Positions 841 to 45,103 of a stretch of DNA of 64,000 nucleotides are shown here, one piece after another. The stretch is from Escherichia coli. GTDB lineage: Bacteria > Pseudomonadota > Gammaproteobacteria > Enterobacterales > Enterobacteriaceae. Both the position numbers and the translations under genes were made by a program. The DNA lies in the NCBI RefSeq assembly GCF_024298765.1, contig NZ_CP101210.1, one strand, 5' to 3'. The notes under the pieces are model-generated. The model had not been told where the DNA came from. It saw only the letters and a list, made by a program, of their open reading frames with translations, and did no database searches. Numbering within the stretch: position 1 is the first letter of the stretch; each line of letters begins with the position of its first letter.

Positions 841-1305
841 ATGAATTATCATCAGTACTATCCTGTCGACATCGTCAACGGCCCCGGCACTCGCTGCACC
901 CTGTTTGTCTCCGGGTGTGTTCATGAATGCCCCGGTTGCTATAACAAAAGCACCTGGCGGGTAAATTCCGGTCAGCCATTTACCAAAGCAATGGAAGACC
1001 AGATCATTAACGATCTGAATGACACTCGCATCAAACGCCAGGGTATTTCCCTCTCCGGCGGCGATCCGCTGCATCCGCAAAACGTGCCGGATATTCTGAA
1101 ACTGGTACAACGCATCCGCGCCGAATGTCCGGGTAAAGACATCTGGGTGTGGACAGGCTATAAACTCGACGAACTCAACGCTGCGCAAATGCAGGTTGTT
1201 GATTTGATTAACGTGCTGGTCGACGGCAAATTTGTGCAGGATTTAAAAGACCCTTCCCTGATCTGGCGCGGCAGCAGCAATCAGGTGGTGCATCATTTGC
1301 GATGA
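841..1305 (+). CDS. nrdG: Anaerobic ribonucleotide reductase activating protein (radical SAM)
   Basis: 154 aa ORF with N-terminal CxxxCxxC-like cysteine cluster (GCVHECPGCYN); downstream of nrdD. Confidence 0.92.
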   Translation: MNYHQYYPVDIVNGPGTRCTLFVSGCVHECPGCYNKSTWRVNSGQPFTKAMEDQIINDLNDTRIKRQGISLSGGDPLHPQNVPDILKLVQRIRAECPGKDIWVWTGYKLDELNAAQMQVVDLINVLVDGKFVQDLKDPSLIWRGSSNQVVHHLR

Positions 1306-1310
1306 TAAGT

Positions 1311-1340
1311 TCCCTGTTACCTGAGTGCAGGCAACAGGGA
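1311..1340. terminator. Imperfect hairpin between convergent nrdG and cybC
   Basis: TCCCTGTT...AACAGGGA inverted repeat with inner CCTG/CAGG; no clean T-tract. Confidence 0.3.
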
Positions 1341-1349
1341 AATAAGGAA

Positions 1350-1739
<390 letters not shown>

Positions 1740-1918
1740 TCACTTCCTTTTTTATTTACACTTCATCCTTCACACTGCCTCATCGACGGCTACGCTCATT
1801 CGCCCGAGTCACGTACTGCGAGTACGCTCCCCGGTCCTCATTCACTTTCCGTCTCGATGCAGTGCGAATGATTTTGTGTAATTTTTTAGTTTATAGCGCG
1901 GCAGGTCGCGCCAGTTTT

Positions 1919-3271
1919 TTACTGCCCGGCGATTTTCATCTCCGGCAACAGCACAGAACCACACTGTATATTACTGCGTGTTTCAATATCGTTACCGACG
2001 GTGACAATATTGCGCCACATATCTTTTAAATTACCTGCGATGGTGATTTCGCTAACCGGATACTGAATTTCGCCATTCTCTACCCAGAAGCCCGCTGCAC
2101 CACGGGAATAATCACCGGTAATGGCACTCACGCCCTGGCCCATCAGCTCCGTCACCACCAGCCCGGTGCCCATCTCTTTGAGCATTTGTTCGAAGCTTAG
2201 CCCTTGTCCGGCAATCCGCCAGTTGTGAATACCGCCCGCATGTCCGGTGCTTTTCAGCCCCAGTTTCCGCGCCGAGTAGCTGGTCAGCAGCCACTGAGTC
2301 AGGATGCCATCTTTAATAATATCGCGACGCTCGGTGCGCACACCTTCGCTGTCGAATGGCGTAGAGGCCAGCCCTTTCAGCAGATGCGGATGCTCTTCAA
2401 TGGTCAGCCAGTCCGGCAGAATTTGTTTACCCAGCGAATCCAGCAGGAAGGTAGATTTACGGTAAACCGATCCACCCGCTATCGCCCCCACCAGATGCCC
2501 AAAAAGCCCGGTTGCCACTTCATTGGCAAAAATGACCGGCGCTTTCATGGTGGAGAGTTTACGCGGTGACAGACGCGATAAAGTGCGGCGAGCACAGTCG
2601 GCCCCGACCCACTCTGGCGTTTGCAGATCGCTCATCGCACGACCAATGGTGTAGGCGTAATCACGCTCCATATCGCCATTTTCTTCGGCAATTACACAGC
2701 TGGAGAGCGAATGACGCGTAGAGCAGTAACCCTGCAACATGCCGTGGCTGTTGCCAAAAACTTTGACACCGTAGTGGCTGTTAAAGCTGCCACCTTCGGT
2801 ATTGGTGATGCGTTTGTCCGCCTGCAATGCTGCCTGTTCTGCGCGGGCCGCCAGTTCAATGGCTTCATCCGGGGAAACTTCCGCAGGGTGGAACAAGTCG
2901 AGATCCGGTGCGTCAAAGGCCAGCAGCTCTTTGTCTGCCACGCCGGCACAGGGATCTGGCGAGGTATAACGGGCAATATCTAGCGCCGCCTGTACGGTGC
3001 GGGCAATGGCCTGCGGGCTTAAATCGGTAGACGATGCGCTACCTTTGCGGTTCTGGTGATAAACAGTGATCCCCAACGCGCCATCGCTATTGAATTCAAC
3101 ATTCTCCACTTCACCATAACGCGTGCTTACGCTAATGCCGGTGGTCTTGCTGACGGCAACTTCTGCACCGTCCGATTTGCCTGAGGCCAACTCCAGCGCA
3201 GTCGAAACTGCTTCTTCCAGAATCTTGCGCTGCGCTTCAACTTGAGAGATTACTTTCATTGCAAGTGCCAT
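1919..3271 (-). CDS. pmbA: Metalloprotease PmbA/TldE
   Basis: 450 aa ORF; conserved position between cybC and yjgA. Confidence 0.92.
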
Positions 3272-3364
3272 AATGTAGAGAGTTTCTCTGAAGTCTAACA
3301 GAGAACCGTTTTTCAGTGCGCATCTTAACTGGTAACATTAGCCTCTTTTTTTAAGGAGCCTGAG

Positions 3365-3916
3365 ATGACTAAGCAGCCCGAAGACTGGCTCGACGACGTT
3401 CCCGGTGATGACATCGAAGACGAAGACGATGAAATTATCTGGGTCAGTAAAAGTGAAATTAAACGCGATGCCGAGGAGCTAAAACGCCTTGGCGCGGAAA
3501 TTGTTGATCTGGGGAAAAACGCGCTGGATAAGATCCCGTTAGATGCGGATCTGCGCGCGGCTATTGAGCTCGCCCAGCGTATTAAGATGGAAGGTCGCCG
3601 CCGCCAGTTGCAGCTCATCGGTAAGATGCTGCGCCAGCGCGATGTTGAGCCTATTCGTCAGGCGCTGGATAAGCTGAAAAACCGCCACAACCAGCAAGTG
3701 GTGTTGTTCCATAAACTGGAAAACCTGCGCGATCGTCTGATCGAGCAAGGTGATGACGCCATCGCTGAAGTATTGAATCTGTGGCCCGATGCCGATCGTC
3801 AGCAACTGCGTACTCTGATCCGTAACGCGAAGAAAGAGAAAGAAGGGAATAAGCCGCCGAAATCCGCGCGCCAGATTTTCCAGTATCTGCGTGAGTTAGC
3901 GGAAAACGAAGGGTAA
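3365..3916 (+). CDS. yjgA: Ribosome-associated DUF615 protein YjgA (DarP)
   Basis: 183 aa acidic/basic ORF divergent from pmbA. Confidence 0.88.
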
Positions 3917-3942
3917 TTTTCGTTGTTGATGTGAGTATGGTT

Positions 3943-4047
3943 TGCCGGATGCGGTGCACCTGTAGGCCTGATAAGACGCATCAAGCGTCGCATCAGGCAC
4001 TATGCTCAAATGCCGGATGCGGCGTGAACGCCTTATCCGGCCTACAC
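3943..4047. repeat. REP/BIME cluster
   Basis: GCCGGATGCGG...CCTTATCCGGCCTACA units plus GGCCTGATAAGACGC...GCGTCGCATCAGGC unit. Confidence 0.8.
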
Positions 4048-20853: not shown

Positions 20854-20868
20854 CCCCAGAAACATCAA

Positions 20869-20896
20869 CGGCTCCTGAATCAGGAGCCGTCTTATT
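20869..20896 (+). terminator. Rho-independent terminator after ytfL
   Basis: CGGCTCCTG-AAT-CAGGAGCCG hairpin followed by T-rich tract. Confidence 0.6.
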
Positions 20897-20930
20897 ACTG
20901 CATAGCACTTTTTACTGCATAGCACTTTGG

Positions 20931-26113: not shown

Positions 26114-26212
26114 TCGGCCTACAAATCATCAACCGCATCCGACACTTTTGTCGGATGCGATGCTGGCGCATCTTATCCGTCCTACAAGTCATACACCGTA
26201 GGCCGCGCATCC
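26114..26212. repeat. REP-like palindromic units
   Basis: CGGATGCG...CGCATCCGAC-type inverted repeats between cpdB and ytfH. Confidence 0.6.
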
Positions 26213-28678: not shown

Positions 28679-28701
28679 AAGATGCATTTAAAATGCATCT
28701 T
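28679..28701 (+). promoter_or_regulatory. NsrR operator upstream of ytfE
   Basis: Perfect 11-1-11 palindrome AAGATGCATTT-A-AAATGCATCTT, 27 nt upstream of the ytfE ATG. Confidence 0.7.
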
Positions 28702-37842: not shown

Positions 37843-39384
37843 ATGCGTAAGTTATCAACCGCCGAGACACTGGCGGCGCAAATTCAGGACGGCGCAACCA
37901 TTGCCATTAGCGGCAACGGCGGCGGCATGGTGGAAGCTGACCATATTCTGGCCGCCATTGAAGCGCGCTTTCTGCAAACCGGACACCCGCGCGATCTGAC
38001 ATTAATCCACTCGCTGGGTATTGGCGATCGCGACAGCAAAGGCACTAACCGTTTTGCTCACGCCGAAATGCTCAAACGCATTATTGCCGGACATTTTACC
38101 TGGTCGCCCAAGATGCAGGAACTGGTGAAAAGCAATGCTATTGAAGCCTACTGTTTCCCTGGTGGCGTAATTCAGGCACTGCTGCGGGAGATCGGTGCCG
38201 GACGTCCGGGGCTTTTTACCCACGTTGGGCTGGGATCGTTTGTTGATCCACGCAATGGTGGCGGTAAGTCGAATGAATGCACGACCGACGACCTGGTAGA
38301 ACTGATTGAAATCGACGGTGAAACCAAACTCCGCTATCGCCCTTTCAAAGTGGACTACGCGATTTTGCGCGGCACCTATGCCGATCCGCGTGGCAACGTT
38401 AGCCTCGAAGAAGAAGCGATTGATATGGATAGCTATTCGATGGCGCTGGCAGCACACAACAGTGGCGGCAAAGTGTTTGTACAGGTGCGCGATGTACTGG
38501 AAGCTGGCGCCATTGAACCTCGCAAGGTCAAGCTACCGGGGATTCTGGTCGATGGTATCGTTGAACACCGCGAACAACCGCAAACCTATCTTGGCGGTTA
38601 CGACCTGACCATCAGCGGTCAGCATCGCCGTCTAAGTTCTAACGACGCTATTGAACTGGTTAGTCATCCGGTGCGTCGCCTGATTGCCCGTCGGGCAGCG
38701 CGGGAACTGGCGGCAGGTGCTTCAACCAACTTTGGCTTTGGTATTCCCGGCGGTATTCCTGGGGTTGCACTGCGCGAAGGCGTGCCTTATCAAAGTTTGT
38801 GGCTGAGTGTAGAACAGGGTGTACATAACGGCATGATGCTGGATGATGCTCTGTTCGGCTGCGCCCGTAACGCCGATGCCATTATTCCATCACTCGATCA
38901 ATTCGAATTCTACAGTGGCGGCGGTATCGATATCACCTTCCTCGGCATGGGAGAGATGGATCGGTACGGTAACGTCAACGTATCCCATCTCAATGGCAAT
39001 CTCATTGGCCCCGGCGGCTTCCTCGAAATTGCGCAAAACGCCCGTAAAGTGGTGTTCTGCGGTACGTTCGACGCTAAAGGCAGCAAGATTGATGTAACGC
39101 CTGATGGCCTGCATATCGCCCAGTCAGGTCAAATCCCCAAACTGGTTACCCAGGTGGAAAAAATTACTTTTAGCGCCGCATACGCACAGCAAAGCAGTCA
39201 GGAAGTGCTGTATATCACCGAACGTGCGGTATTCCAGTTAACGGCAGAAGGCGTTGAATTAATTGAGATCGCCCCTGGCGTAGAGATTGACCGCGACATT
39301 CTGCCGTATATGGCCTTCCGTCCGATTATCAGGCACCCACGCCTGATGGAAAGTAGCCTGTTTACGCCAATGGAGGATGCATGA
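37843..39384 (+). CDS. Family I CoA-transferase (fused alpha/beta; propionate/acetate CoA-transferase-like)
   Basis: 513 aa; assigned by resemblance to YdiF/Pct-type CoA transferases. Confidence 0.75.
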   Translation: MRKLSTAETLAAQIQDGATIAISGNGGGMVEADHILAAIEARFLQTGHPRDLTLIHSLGIGDRDSKGTNRFAHAEMLKRIIAGHFTWSPKMQELVKSNAIEAYCFPGGVIQALLREIGAGRPGLFTHVGLGSFVDPRNGGGKSNECTTDDLVELIEIDGETKLRYRPFKVDYAILRGTYADPRGNVSLEEEAIDMDSYSMALAAHNSGGKVFVQVRDVLEAGAIEPRKVKLPGILVDGIVEHREQPQTYLGGYDLTISGQHRRLSSNDAIELVSHPVRRLIARRAARELAAGASTNFGFGIPGGIPGVALREGVPYQSLWLSVEQGVHNGMMLDDALFGCARNADAIIPSLDQFEFYSGGGIDITFLGMGEMDRYGNVNVSHLNGNLIGPGGFLEIAQNARKVVFCGTFDAKGSKIDVTPDGLHIAQSGQIPKLVTQVEKITFSAAYAQQSSQEVLYITERAVFQLTAEGVELIEIAPGVEIDRDILPYMAFRPIIRHPRLMESSLFTPMEDA

Positions 39385-41545: not shown

Positions 41546-42823
41546 ATGAATAAAATAAAGAATTATCGATGGTATATGATTGCCCTCGTATGCTTTATCA
41601 CTGTAATCAATTATCTGGACAGAACGGCGTTAGGTATTGCGGCTCCAACGATTATGGAGACAACCGGAATAACCAAAGAACAATATTCATGGATTGTCAG
41701 TGCATTCCAGTTGGCCTATACATTAGGGCAACCGGTAATGGGCTTCTTTATTGATACCGTGGGTCTGAAGTTAAGTTTTGCGATATGTGCCGCAATTTGG
41801 GGCCTGGCGACAATGGGCCATGCACTAACCGGAACGTGGTCTGGTCTGGCATTTATGCGCGCCCTGATGGGTTTCAGCGAAGCGTCGGCAATTCCGGCGG
41901 GTGTAAAAACCGCATCAACATGGTTCCCGGCAAAAGAGCGTGGCGTGGCGACAGGTGTTTTCAATATGGGCACCTCACTCGGCGCGATGCTTGCTCCACC
42001 GTTGATTGCCTGGTGCATTATGTTTCATAGCTGGCAATTTGCGTTTATTGTTTCAGGTAGCCTTGCTTTGCTCGCGGCTTTATTTTGGTTCTTTTGTTAT
42101 AAAGATCCGAAAGATGCCAAACGCCTTTCTGATGAAGAGCGCCACTATATTGAATCAGGACAAGAACAGCATCTTAAAACAGATAAGAAAGAAAAAACAT
42201 CAATCAAGCATATCCTCAGCCAACGTAATTTCTGGGGGATTGGCATCGCGCGTTTTCTCGCAGACCCGGCATGGGGAACCATTAACTTCTGGGTGCCGAT
42301 TTTCTTCGTCGAAACGCTGCATTTTAGCCTGAAAGAAATTGCCATGTTCGTCTGGCTGCCTTTCCTGCTGGGCGATCTCGGCTGTTTAGCCAGTGGTTTT
42401 GTCGCGAAGTTCTTCCACGATCGCGGCGTGAGTTTAATTAACTCACGAAGAATTACCTTCACTATTGCAGCCGTCATTATGATGACGATTGGCCTGGTGA
42501 GTATTGTCGAAAATCCCTACATTGCCGTATTACTGATTAGTATTGGCGCGTTCTCGCATCAATGCCTTTCTACTGTAGCAGCAACTCTGGGTGGCGATCT
42601 GTTCAAAAAAGACGAAGTAGCTACCGCAGTGGGTATGGCAGGAGCCTGTGCGTGGAGCGGTCAGTTGATTTTCAACCTGTTCATCGGGGCATTCGTTCAC
42701 ATTATCGGCTTCGCGCCGTTCTTTATTGCCCTGGCTTTCTTTGACATTATTGGCGCCATTGCGCTGTGGATGCTTATCAAAGTTAAAGACGAAGAACTAC
42801 AAGTACAGTTAGCGACAAGCTAA
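41546..42823 (+). CDS. MFS transporter (anion:cation symporter family, hexuronate/glucarate-transporter-like)
   Basis: 425 aa 12-TM ORF; N-terminus NYLDRTALGIAAP typical of ExuT/GudP-like carriers. Confidence 0.82.
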   Translation: MNKIKNYRWYMIALVCFITVINYLDRTALGIAAPTIMETTGITKEQYSWIVSAFQLAYTLGQPVMGFFIDTVGLKLSFAICAAIWGLATMGHALTGTWSGLAFMRALMGFSEASAIPAGVKTASTWFPAKERGVATGVFNMGTSLGAMLAPPLIAWCIMFHSWQFAFIVSGSLALLAALFWFFCYKDPKDAKRLSDEERHYIESGQEQHLKTDKKEKTSIKHILSQRNFWGIGIARFLADPAWGTINFWVPIFFVETLHFSLKEIAMFVWLPFLLGDLGCLASGFVAKFFHDRGVSLINSRRITFTIAAVIMMTIGLVSIVENPYIAVLLISIGAFSHQCLSTVAATLGGDLFKKDEVATAVGMAGACAWSGQLIFNLFIGAFVHIIGFAPFFIALAFFDIIGAIALWMLIKVKDEELQVQLATS

Positions 42824-42832
42824 TTATTTTAC

Positions 42833-42875
42833 ATAGAAACGCTATAATTTAGCTTTGTAGCGTTTCTATTTTTCT
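42833..42875 (+). terminator. Rho-independent terminator after the MFS gene
   Basis: ATAGAAACGCT...AGCGTTTCTAT 11-bp stem followed by TTTTCT. Confidence 0.6.
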
Positions 42876-42960
42876 CATAAATTAAACGTCTCTTCCAAAA
42901 CGTTCAGTATCTACTGGCATTGCTTCGCAAATTTATGATTTAGATATCAAAATAACTATT

Positions 42961-44228
42961 CTAAATTGCCCCCCTGAATGCCTCTGCCATTAACTCTTGC
43001 TCACGACCAGGTAATCGAAGACGCTCGGCAATGATTCGCCACTGACTGACAATCCCTCTAAAATTAGCAATAATGTCATCTGCTTCTGTCAAACCAAGTC
43101 GAAAATACTCCGCAACTTCTCGAGCTAATTCCAAATCAAGTGCATTATCATTTCTGTAATATTGAGTTTTAGACCGTCAGACCTGGCAACAGGATTCAAA
43201 TCATATGCCTCAGAAAGCCGCCAACCTTTTCCCGGTATCAAGATATATCCATGATTACGTAAATGGTCATCGGTATTAGAAACAAGAATATTAAAAACAA
43301 TCCTGGACCAGAGTTCCTTAAGGTCAGTATTAGTCTGCGCTCCATGTCTGATAAGAACATCTGCTAATTCCAGATAACTCACACCTGTAGAGGCATCTTC
43401 ACCATCCTGATGCCTGGTTAGTGTCATAGCCGAAGCAAAATGCAGACGCCTTCCCGCATTAGTGCGGTCAAAACGACGAACCATAAAACAATGGTAATTG
43501 CTGGCAAATTTATGCGCCTGAGCAGGTGCAACATTCAGTCCACAGCCAACAGCAAGTGCATTAACGACCATTTCCCATCCACCAACATCATACTCATCTT
43601 TTACACTGGGAAATTTAGCGATGTAGAGATGCCCAGCTTCATCAACAACACTGGCTTTCGGACGTGCCCCCCCTAATGATCCCCCCGGAGCGATTAGCAT
43701 TCTTAACCATTTTTGCCCCATTAGCTCTTTATTATCAGGATCTTCTTCAATTGCCCGGCTAGCCCTTTCCAGACTCGCTATTTCGGTAAATGGTGGGGCT
43801 GCAACATCAATGCGATTATCAAGAAACTCTCCAGCGTCTTCACGTTTGTATCGAAGAGCCCCAACCCGATAAAGATCATGAACACCTAGTAGATAATCAG
43901 ACTCATAAAGGTGGGAGTCTTTATCACATAACCCGTCTCGAATATCCCTCTCAAAACGACGCTTCATTAGCATACGCCCCCAACGATCCGGGCAGGAATC
44001 ACTAAATGCACCAAATTTATCCTTTGGAGGAATTGGGTACTGTGCTCCCTCATACAACATTATTTCAGGATCTAACTGAATGAAATTAAGTGAAGGATCT
44101 GCAAGCGCCTTTTTATCGTACTCAAACTCAAATATCTCACGCGTCCGAGTGCGGCGACTGTGTAAATAACCAATCCGCTCCGGACCATCCAGGCCTTCCC
44201 AATCCGCATACACTCCGATTAATGCCAT
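42961..44228 (-). pseudogene. HipA-family serine/threonine kinase toxin, frameshifted (367-aa ORF plus ~56 codons continuing in another frame)
   Basis: HipA motifs (APGGSLGGARPK, DDHLRNHG, AYDLNP); ORF stops at 43125 but frame continues to stop at 42961 after a 1-nt shift in an A run near 43151-43153. Confidence 0.7.
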
Positions 44229-44230
44229 AA

Positions 44231-44722
44231 TTAATTTCCTTTTAACGGTTTTTTTATCGGTTTTAATAGTGCTGCAAGAGAGGTTGATGTTTCTCCTGTA
44301 ATAGATGGCGTCGAGCCTTCTGCCAGTGCTGTTAAATCCGTGGTGAGATGACCTTCTTTCTCGTGCCTCATCTGCAATGAGGCTGTCTGAGAACCTTCTT
44401 CATTCTTACTTGATGCACGAGAAAGCCCTCTTTTTTTAATCAAACGGGAATCCTGGAGCTGACGCCCTAAGTCGTCTTCAGCTGCAAGCTTATTTAAATC
44501 CGTTTCCAGGCCCAAAACCTGCATCACAGACAAATATGCCCCTATCGTGACCCCTGCACTTCCTGACTCCAGAGAGCGCAATGTTATTGGCGACATCCCA
44601 GCACGTTCAGCAACTTGCTTTGCGGTAAGCCTGCGTCGTAAACGAGCAAGTTTCAGCCGCTCACCAAATTCACTAAGCATCTGATTCGTATAAGGGAGTA
44701 ACGGTGCTGTTTTTTTACCCAT
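44231..44722 (-). CDS. HipB-like XRE-family HTH antitoxin with long Ser/Thr-rich C-terminal extension
   Basis: 163 aa; [26 protein letters not shown]; stop 2 nt before hipA-like start. Confidence 0.75.
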
Positions 44723-44742
44723 AGTGATAATATTTTATCTTT

Positions 44743-44763
44743 TTATGGCTATGATAGCCATAA
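44743..44763. promoter_or_regulatory. Perfect 21-bp palindrome TTATGGCTAT-G-ATAGCCATAA upstream of hipB-like gene (candidate autoregulatory operator)
   Basis: 10-bp arms, 21-41 nt upstream of the hipB-like start codon. Confidence 0.4.
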
Positions 44764-45076
44764 TATTAGCATTTATTGGATTGAACGCACCTGCAAAGCG
44801 TTCAAGATTACGAAAGTGATGGTATTTTATCTTTTTATATATAAAAACAATAAAATAACAGCACATTCATATATAACATATTGTTTTTATTATCATACAA
44901 GTGAGACGATCGCTGTATTGATGCTTTTGTCGTGTTTTACGCGTAAAAAACATGACACGAACTACCAGCGGCGAGGCTGGGGGCCAGGTATGGGTACTGC
45001 GAACTTTTTATAAAAGGAATAGCAAGAGATTTATGGAGGGAACGTCTGTTTCTGCGGTTTTTATCACTTAAAAGCA

Positions 45077-45103
45077 AAACGCCGACCACTGGTCGGCGTT
45101 TTT
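45077..45103 (-). terminator. Rho-independent terminator downstream of rplI (bidirectional in appearance)
   Basis: GCCGACC-ACT-GGTCGGC hairpin flanked by A-run and T-run. Confidence 0.65.

Follow-up and report, generated by a model that had tools for sequence, protein, structure and literature searches.

Two inverted pairs of a conserved 18-bp box form the probable operator region of a hipBA-like module in Escherichia coli

The 350-bp intergenic region lying between the rplI terminator and a minus-strand HTH/HipA gene pair of Escherichia coli carries four copies of an 18-bp box organized as two inverted pairs, an architecture that is conserved among proteobacteria and accompanies the HTH gene. 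With a probability that we estimate at roughly three in four, and on the basis of sequence comparisons, this region would be the operator and promoter of a hipBA-like type II toxin-antitoxin operon, autorepressed by its HipB-like protein through the four boxes. A palindrome and a direct repeat, which had first drawn attention to the region in a first-pass annotation, are fragments of this larger conserved pattern. All positions given hereafter refer to the window, i.e. the whole stretch of 64,000 nucleotides that was analysed, which derives from an E. coli chromosome and shows 100% identity to strain 104.

Genomic context and carriage of the module

The features of the region are collected in Table 1. 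The HTH protein is composed of an HTH domain (residues 10-92), followed by a disordered linker and by a conserved C-terminal LAALLKP helix. The start of hipA at 44228 is located 2 nt past the end of this 163-aa HTH gene and in the same orientation, and the HipA_C toxin domain (PF07804) is recognized with an E-value of 1.4e-44 in the ORF of the window and of 9e-47 in the intact allele. An XRE/HTH gene immediately upstream of a HipA_C-encoding gene, both in the same orientation, is the gene arrangement of a HipBA-type module, and this order, HTH then hipA, recurs in the majority of the 80 homologous loci compared in this study. In strain 104, RefSeq names the two genes “helix-turn-helix domain-containing protein” and [quoted passage not shown]. 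In the window, the reading frame is shifted by the loss of one nucleotide from an A-run (about 43150-43153). In other strains hipA is intact and encodes a 422-aa protein (e.g. in locus L004). The antitoxin gene and its putative operator being intact and hipA being inactivated, the module is decaying on the toxin side first.

The module is accessory in E. coli, being present in about 1046 of 5426 complete genomes (about 19%), always beside rplI, and its carriers include ST131 and other extraintestinal lineages. In E. coli genomes deprived of it, homology to the window restarts at about 45070 and different genes, such as TRAP-transporter genes, are found beside rplI. The segment downstream of rplI is a replacement hot spot (window 41546-45070 compared with 1099-3943 of locus L002). 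The window strain has an MFS transporter gene and the hipBA-like module there, and in other E. coli the FAD-dependent oxidoreductase gene common to both is followed by three TRAP-transporter genes; E. albertii and one E. coli strain harbour an extra MaoC-dehydratase gene at this place. The stretch of about 200 bp extending from box 4 to the rplI terminator (44865-45070) is conserved in the E. coli alleles and in E. albertii. It includes a GC-rich sequence, CCAGCGGCGAGGCTGGGGGCCAGG, bears no annotated gene and gives only sub-threshold Rfam matches.

Table 1. Genes, boxes and other sequence features of the hipBA-like locus
Feature	Position	Strand	Remarks
HipA-family kinase gene, pseudogene here	42961-44228	-	Pfam HipA_C E=1.4e-44; frameshift
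HipB-like XRE/HTH antitoxin gene	44231-44722	-	163 aa; Pfam HTH_31 E=6.6e-11; HTH_3
Box 1, pair 1, start-codon-proximal	44724-44741	+	reads GTGATAATATTTTATCTT on the plus strand; PWM 19.4 bits
Perfect 21-bp palindrome	44743-44763		inner 9 nt of box 2 and 12 of the 13 spacer nt
Box 2, pair 1, distal	44755-44772	-	reads ATGCTAATATTATGGCTA on the minus strand; PWM 20.3 bits
Predicted extended -10 TGCTAATAT, inside box 2	44763-44771	-	predicted from sequence
Box 3, pair 2	44816-44833	+	GTGATGGTATTTTATCTT; PWM 12.8 bits; orientation as box 1
Box 4, pair 2	44847-44864	-	GTGCTGTTATTTTATTGT on the minus strand; PWM 14.0 bits
rplI intrinsic terminator	45076-45102	-	upstream limit of the hipBA-associated segment

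A box design shared by the family

A search for homologues of the HTH protein gave 2361 matches, 20 of which, from different genera, were aligned. Eighty homologous loci from gamma- and beta-proteobacterial genomes were then compared, their upstream regions being aligned at the start codon, and an 18-nt position weight matrix (PWM) of the box was refined on these upstream regions themselves. The resulting consensus is GTGCYAWTATTCTGGCWN, with T2, G3, A6, T8, A9, T10, T11 and C16 as the strongest positions. About 3.4 sites per region were detected in 82 upstream regions, compared with 0.02 in shuffled regions. Read on the gene strand, the boxes form inverted pairs composed of a “+” box, a 13-nt spacer and a “-” box, with a start-to-start offset of 31 nt (about three helical turns) from which only two pairs depart, so that each pair spans 49 bp. 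The proximal pair is positioned at -50/-19 or -49/-18 from the ATG in 67 of the 82 regions and ends 0-1 nt before it, and a second pair of the same geometry occurs 67-156 nt further upstream in 51 of them. No helical phasing was detected between the two pairs (mean resultant length of 0.33).

Each box contains a weak internal dyad, TGCYA-N6-TRGCA, whose outer half is strong and whose inner half is weak. The boxes are asymmetric, their inner halves differing between the two orientations, and the most conserved part is the central TATT rather than the outer half-sites, which is unusual for the simple palindrome of an HTH dimer. Another motif, TGGC-N7-GCCA, was considered as a conserved central dyad and discarded, since, of 69 distinct loci, no more than 10 have GCC at this place in the spacer, and most of these are from related Pseudomonas.

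In the window, box 1 and box 2 occupy the positions of the family (-19/-18 and -50/-49, each found in 67/82 regions), with a gap of 1 nt between box 1 and the ATG of the HTH gene. Box 4 is the inverted partner of box 3 at an offset of exactly 31 nt, and this second pair is placed 92 bp upstream of the first. The possibility that the upstream pair regulates a divergent gene was rejected, since no ATG abuts its outer box and since the upstream neighbours differ, the module being preceded by rplI in E. coli and E. albertii and by an autotransporter gene in Salmonella. Elsewhere in the window, the box matrix gives its top score (20.9 bits) to an isolated site, ATGCCATTATTCCATCAC, at 38876-38893, which falls inside an acyl-CoA:acetate/3-ketoacid CoA-transferase gene according to coordinate mapping to locus L001. 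The scan revealed no partner box for this site, which is therefore probably a chance occurrence.

The direct repeat as part of the array

The first-pass annotation had reported a 16-nt direct repeat, TATTTTATCTTTTTAT, preceded by a similar AGTGAT motif at each copy. Both copies are exact (44731-44746 and 44823-44838), and inclusion of the AGTGAT motif, which is the start of a box, extends the repeat to 24 nt with 22/24 identity (44723-44746 and 44815-44838, at a spacing of 92 nt); no direct repeat of such a length is expected by chance. The core of the first copy is box 1 and that of the second is box 3, each with a few flanking bases, while the inverted partner box located 31 nt upstream of each copy on the gene strand had been overlooked; a repeat search lists both partners as inverted repeats. 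The proposal of an autoregulatory operator with repeated regulator sites upstream of the hipB-like gene is thus retained as a likely one for the direct repeat, whose two copies represent two of the four family-conserved boxes.

The two pairs do not present the same degree of conservation within the species. Of the 1050 E. coli genomes that match the 65-nt stretch 44716-44780, which comprises pair 1 with its flanks, 1022 have it without any change; in a divergent allele, the spacer is changed and the boxes are retained. For the pair-2 stretch, only 87 genomes have exactly the sequence of the window, and 952 others depart from it by 1-3 nt. Pair 2 is polymorphic across the E. coli alleles, scoring 10-15 bits, with a 30-nt offset in one allele, and box 3 of the majority allele reaches 15.3 bits, compared with 12.8 in the window. 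The strain EC23HZZ201 (locus L088, 2507-2600, compared with window 44722-44864) possesses one box pair only, fused to the ATG and made, on the gene strand, of a pair-2-type “+” box and a “-” box directly abutting the ATG. This arrangement is consistent with the product expected from a recombination between the direct-repeat boxes. The hipA gene of this strain is degraded, only fragments being found.

The single pair of EC23HZZ201, which fits either a recombination between the repeats or an ancestor devoid of the duplication, could also be invoked in favour of the direct repeat being a non-functional scar, left by a local duplication or by a target-site duplication around an inserted, palindrome-bearing segment of 68 bp. 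This explanation is extremely unlikely, as two pairs occur at variable distances in the majority of the loci, in distant genera and with unrelated intervening sequences, which indicates an ancient and maintained duplication rather than a recent scar. The insertion of a mobile element with target-site duplication is likewise not supported, both copies of the repeat coinciding with box positions conserved in distant genera.

A palindrome restricted to one lineage

The second element initially reported, the perfect 21-bp palindrome TTATGGCTAT-G-ATAGCCATAA, is likewise exact at 44743-44763 and located just upstream of the hipB-like start, 21-41 nt from the ATG (44722, minus strand). Under a first-order Markov null model matched in composition, 0.29 palindromes with arms of 10 nt or more would be expected in 64 kb, and about 0.006 in 375 bp of the local composition. 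The 64-kb window contains five distinct perfect palindromes of this kind. Three others than the present one are located at 20868-20913, 26135-26158 and 28679-28701, the first of them being adjoined by an exact 17-nt direct repeat with a 17-nt spacing (20895-20913).

A reading in line with the first-pass annotation takes the palindrome itself as the principal operator, the direct repeats being accessory sites. In its favour, the palindrome is perfect far beyond chance, spans the predicted transcription start and is fixed in about 97% of the E. coli carriers, with outer arms of 8 bp in common with E. albertii. Comparison of the homologous loci, which the same annotation had advised and which was performed here on 80 of them, makes this assignment improbable: the direct repeats are conserved as boxes and the palindrome is not shared. 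On the gene strand, its left arm mostly corresponds to the last 9 nt of box 2. The right arm belongs to the 13-nt spacer, and it is this spacer arm that is not conserved. In Serratia, the boxes of pair 1 are identical and the spacer is unrelated and non-palindromic; so is the spacer of Salmonella, whose pair-1 boxes differ at three positions in total, despite a nearly identical HTH domain in both genera. The paralogue of the HTH gene carried by an integrative and conjugative element (ICE) in E. coli has near-identical boxes separated by another spacer, TATAGGTATTGAA, and in the allele 382634_2f, likewise located beside rplI, the boxes are retained and the palindrome is broken by 6 differences. 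Furthermore, the half-site order of the palindrome is opposite to that inside the conserved box, and the 10-nt arms of the window are an outlier among 75 loci, in which the longest arm is typically of 3-4 nt.

The palindrome is therefore specific to the main E. coli allele and not a conserved operator. In E. albertii, which shares the same synteny, the arms are of 8 bp with a 5-nt loop; two substitutions separate the main E. coli allele from this sequence, and each of them lengthens the pairing. The dyad axis of the 49-bp pair is 5 bp off the centre of the palindrome. The conserved dyad is, according to these sequence comparisons, the 49-bp box pair, and the palindrome is real, non-random and lineage-specific; it could have arisen through selection for an extra site or through a quasipalindrome template-switch event, both of which are possible.

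Predicted promoter and leader

A consensus scan revealed no classical sigma-70 -35/-10 promoter on the gene strand between 44600 and 45130, which favours the reading of an extended -10 element inside box 2. Positions 2-3 of the equivalent boxes are TG in 74 of 75 loci, and positions 5-10 read TATTAT or TAATAT in 68 of 75, the complete arrangement (TGnTAWTAT) being found in at least 90% of the loci, and no conserved -35 element was observed upstream of box 2 across the homologous loci. From this sequence, transcription is inferred to start at about 44755-44757, giving a leader of about 32 nt that would consist of the spacer and box 1. No recognisable Shine-Dalgarno sequence was found in the leader of the enteric loci. 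The alternative idea of duplicated promoter elements, also put forward at first for the repeat, is doubtful, as the corresponding hexamer of box 4 (TGTTAT) has a G in place of the essential A at -11 of a -10 element, which makes pair 2 unlikely to provide a second promoter in E. coli. A sigma-54 reading of TGGC-N7-GCC was discarded on account of its GG-to-GC spacing of 8 nt instead of 10.

The position of this predicted promoter also bears on a quite improbable explanation, according to which the box pairs would act as RNA, forming 49-nt leader hairpins transcribed from further upstream, the proximal one occluding the translation start and exerting a translational or attenuation control. Both 49-nt units fold at -11.8 and -11.5 kcal/mol (z about -3.3 compared with shuffles), 79.8% of the cells are paired, the covariation score exceeds those of all 500 shuffles and the transition mismatches are mostly compatible with G-U pairing (149 vs 36). 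However, the predicted -10 sits in the 5' arm, so that this arm would not be transcribed, and the within-locus similarity is equally high for boxes that do not pair with each other (proximal “+” vs upstream “-”), with an observed/expected identity at position 7 of 0.79/0.50 for non-partners and of 0.62/0.42 for true partners. Moreover, 36-52% of the sequences lack pairing at the stem columns 7/43, 4/46, 14/36 and 15/35, no partner-specific compensatory base changes of the sort that mark a cis-regulatory RNA hairpin were found, and no Rfam match attained the gathering score, the sub-threshold ones being near the rplI terminator. The equal similarity of non-partners rather suggests a site variant common to all boxes of a lineage, as if a co-evolving protein read all four of them.

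The HTH protein as the predicted binder

Several observations point to the HTH protein of the module as the one which reads the boxes. The neighbouring genes of the module vary between genera, yet the boxes still accompany the HTH gene, and the proximal pair is even kept at orphan HTH paralogues lacking hipA (loci L003, L009, L050, L055, L060 and L065). The 95 N-terminal residues of the protein are nearly invariant across 20 genera and are followed by a variable linker, and a full-length HipA with 60-82% identity is encoded directly downstream in most loci. In the structure model of the HTH protein, pLDDT values are 76-88 for residues 11-50 and 77-82 for residues 51-70, and fall to 60-67 by residue 90. 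The model resembles the HipB structures of Shewanella (4PU7) and of E. coli K-12, including K-12 HipB-operator complexes, and PDB entry 9U9G matches residues 1-99 of the protein (E=1e-30, about 60% identity).

One of the orphan paralogues is located on an integrative element of E. coli GPEC709 (locus L003, 3583-4120), together with a MobH relaxase, an integrase and AbiE genes. It shows about 82% DNA identity and possesses the proximal pair, with no upstream pair and no hipA downstream. Judged by its sequence, this paralogue is an orphan antitoxin-like repressor.

It is very improbable that the boxes are bound by a host factor, for example a nucleoid protein with a preference for AT-rich DNA, instead of the HTH protein of the module. 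The AT-rich core of the box (AATATT/TTATT) would fit with such a factor, but the boxes are found together with the HTH gene in two classes of proteobacteria, in genomic surroundings that are unrelated and also on an ICE, G3 and C16 as well as the strict 31-nt geometry are foreign to nucleoid-protein sites, and the 65-nt sequence of pair 1 occurs nowhere else in E. coli genomes.

The association of the boxes with the HTH gene, the structural match with HipB and the precedents of four-operator arrays make autorepression the most likely mechanism. In the proposed scheme, a dimer of the HipB-like HTH protein would bind each box, with HipA probably acting as co-repressor. Pair 1 would cover the promoter, whose predicted extended -10 lies within box 2, and also the 5' leader as far as the start codon, box 1 ending 1 nt before the ATG; its occupancy would thereby shut off the transcription of the operon. 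Pair 2, which is weaker in E. coli, could provide auxiliary operators that contribute to cooperativity or to the local concentration of the repressor.

In a more specific and rather unlikely version of the binding, the 49-bp pair would constitute a single bipartite operator for a HipB/HipA assembly, in which two dimers three turns apart are bridged by HipA, the second pair serving for looping and the palindrome being either a new extra site or a template-switch product. If true, this assembly would bury the -10 element and, the box being directly adjacent to the ATG in two classes of proteobacteria, the translation-initiation region as well, a repression geometry unlike that of the K-12 and Shewanella hipBA promoters.

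Comparison with known HipBA systems and other operators

HipB-type arrays comprise several, typically four, sites of 16-18 bp, and the four 18-bp dyad sites found here upstream of the hipB-like gene are of this type. Conversely, the models available for characterized systems were all below their cut-offs: the K-12 HipB equivalog PRK09726 of NCBIfam (17.1 bits vs a cut-off of 79), the couple_hipB model (30.3 vs 71.65), the YjjJ model (37.5 vs 401) and Pfam Couple_hipA (13.4 vs 22.5). The module therefore belongs to a distinct subfamily and is not the K-12 system. PADLOC gave generic HTH matches for the antitoxin only and none for HipA, and an attempted placement of the HipA of the window among the HipA clades of Gerdes 2021 gave no resolved clade.

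In K-12, hipBA is controlled by four HipB operators (O1-O4) of sequence TATCC-N8-GGATA, with gaps of 10, 21 and 10 bp (PMC4150777). The present locus resembles it by its four 18-bp dyad-type sites, placed before a hipB-like gene which is itself followed by the gene of a HipA kinase, and by the grouping of these sites in closely spaced pairs (PMC4150777). The repression in K-12 by an HTH antitoxin with its toxin partner is the scheme also predicted here. The present locus differs by an unrelated box sequence, by the asymmetry of the boxes and their inversion within the pair, by a within-pair gap of 13 bp (31 bp start-to-start) with a variable distance between the pairs, by the proximal box abutting the start codon and by a 163-aa antitoxin whose disordered linker is long.

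The hipBA operon of Shewanella oneidensis also possesses four HipB operators, GTGTA-N6-TACAC, separated by gaps of 34 bp, one of the copies reaching the coding start region of hipB (PMC4150777). As in the present boxes (TGCYA-N6-TRGCA), the half-sites start with GTG/TG and are separated by N6, and the two proteins resemble each other in their HTH fold (4PU7). In Shewanella, however, the sites are symmetric and follow one another at even spacing rather than forming inverted pairs; in the boxes described here, conservation is highest in the central TATT.

The closest solved relative of the HTH protein is the HipB of Pseudomonas fluorescens 2P24 (“antitoxin HipB”, PDB 9U9G, released 2026-04-01), with which it shares the N-terminal MxKKTAPL arm, this comparison concerning the protein structure only. 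In the literature searched, no publication was found on 9U9G, on the HipB of P. fluorescens 2P24 or on the four-box operator. The binding of an Acidovorax HipB to its promoter has been published, by EMSA, for a protein that may or may not belong to the subfamily of the HTH protein of the window.

Outside toxin-antitoxin systems, the HTH fold of the restriction-modification C protein C.Esp1396I is a structural neighbour of that of the window. C.Esp1396I forms a tetramer on a 35-bp operator, with two dimers on adjacent sites located immediately upstream of its own gene and overlapping the promoter. The C-protein system differs by its role in restriction-modification control, its function as both activator and repressor, its shorter operator and its lack of a toxin partner. 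Altogether, the array is a probable operator array of a known kind, whose box sequence and pair geometry were not found described.

Conclusions

The general understanding of toxin-antitoxin autoregulation is left unchanged by this four-box array, which would represent an ordinary kind of self-regulating control region. At the level of the family, the map of the boxes steers effort away from a palindrome that is not common to its members. The four boxes, the fixed 31-bp geometry of the pairs and the predicted location of the promoter inside a box provide a precise map for operator work on a HipA subfamily whose antitoxin structure was only recently solved, and relatives of the module are widespread, in Serratia, Salmonella, Pseudomonas and Burkholderia.
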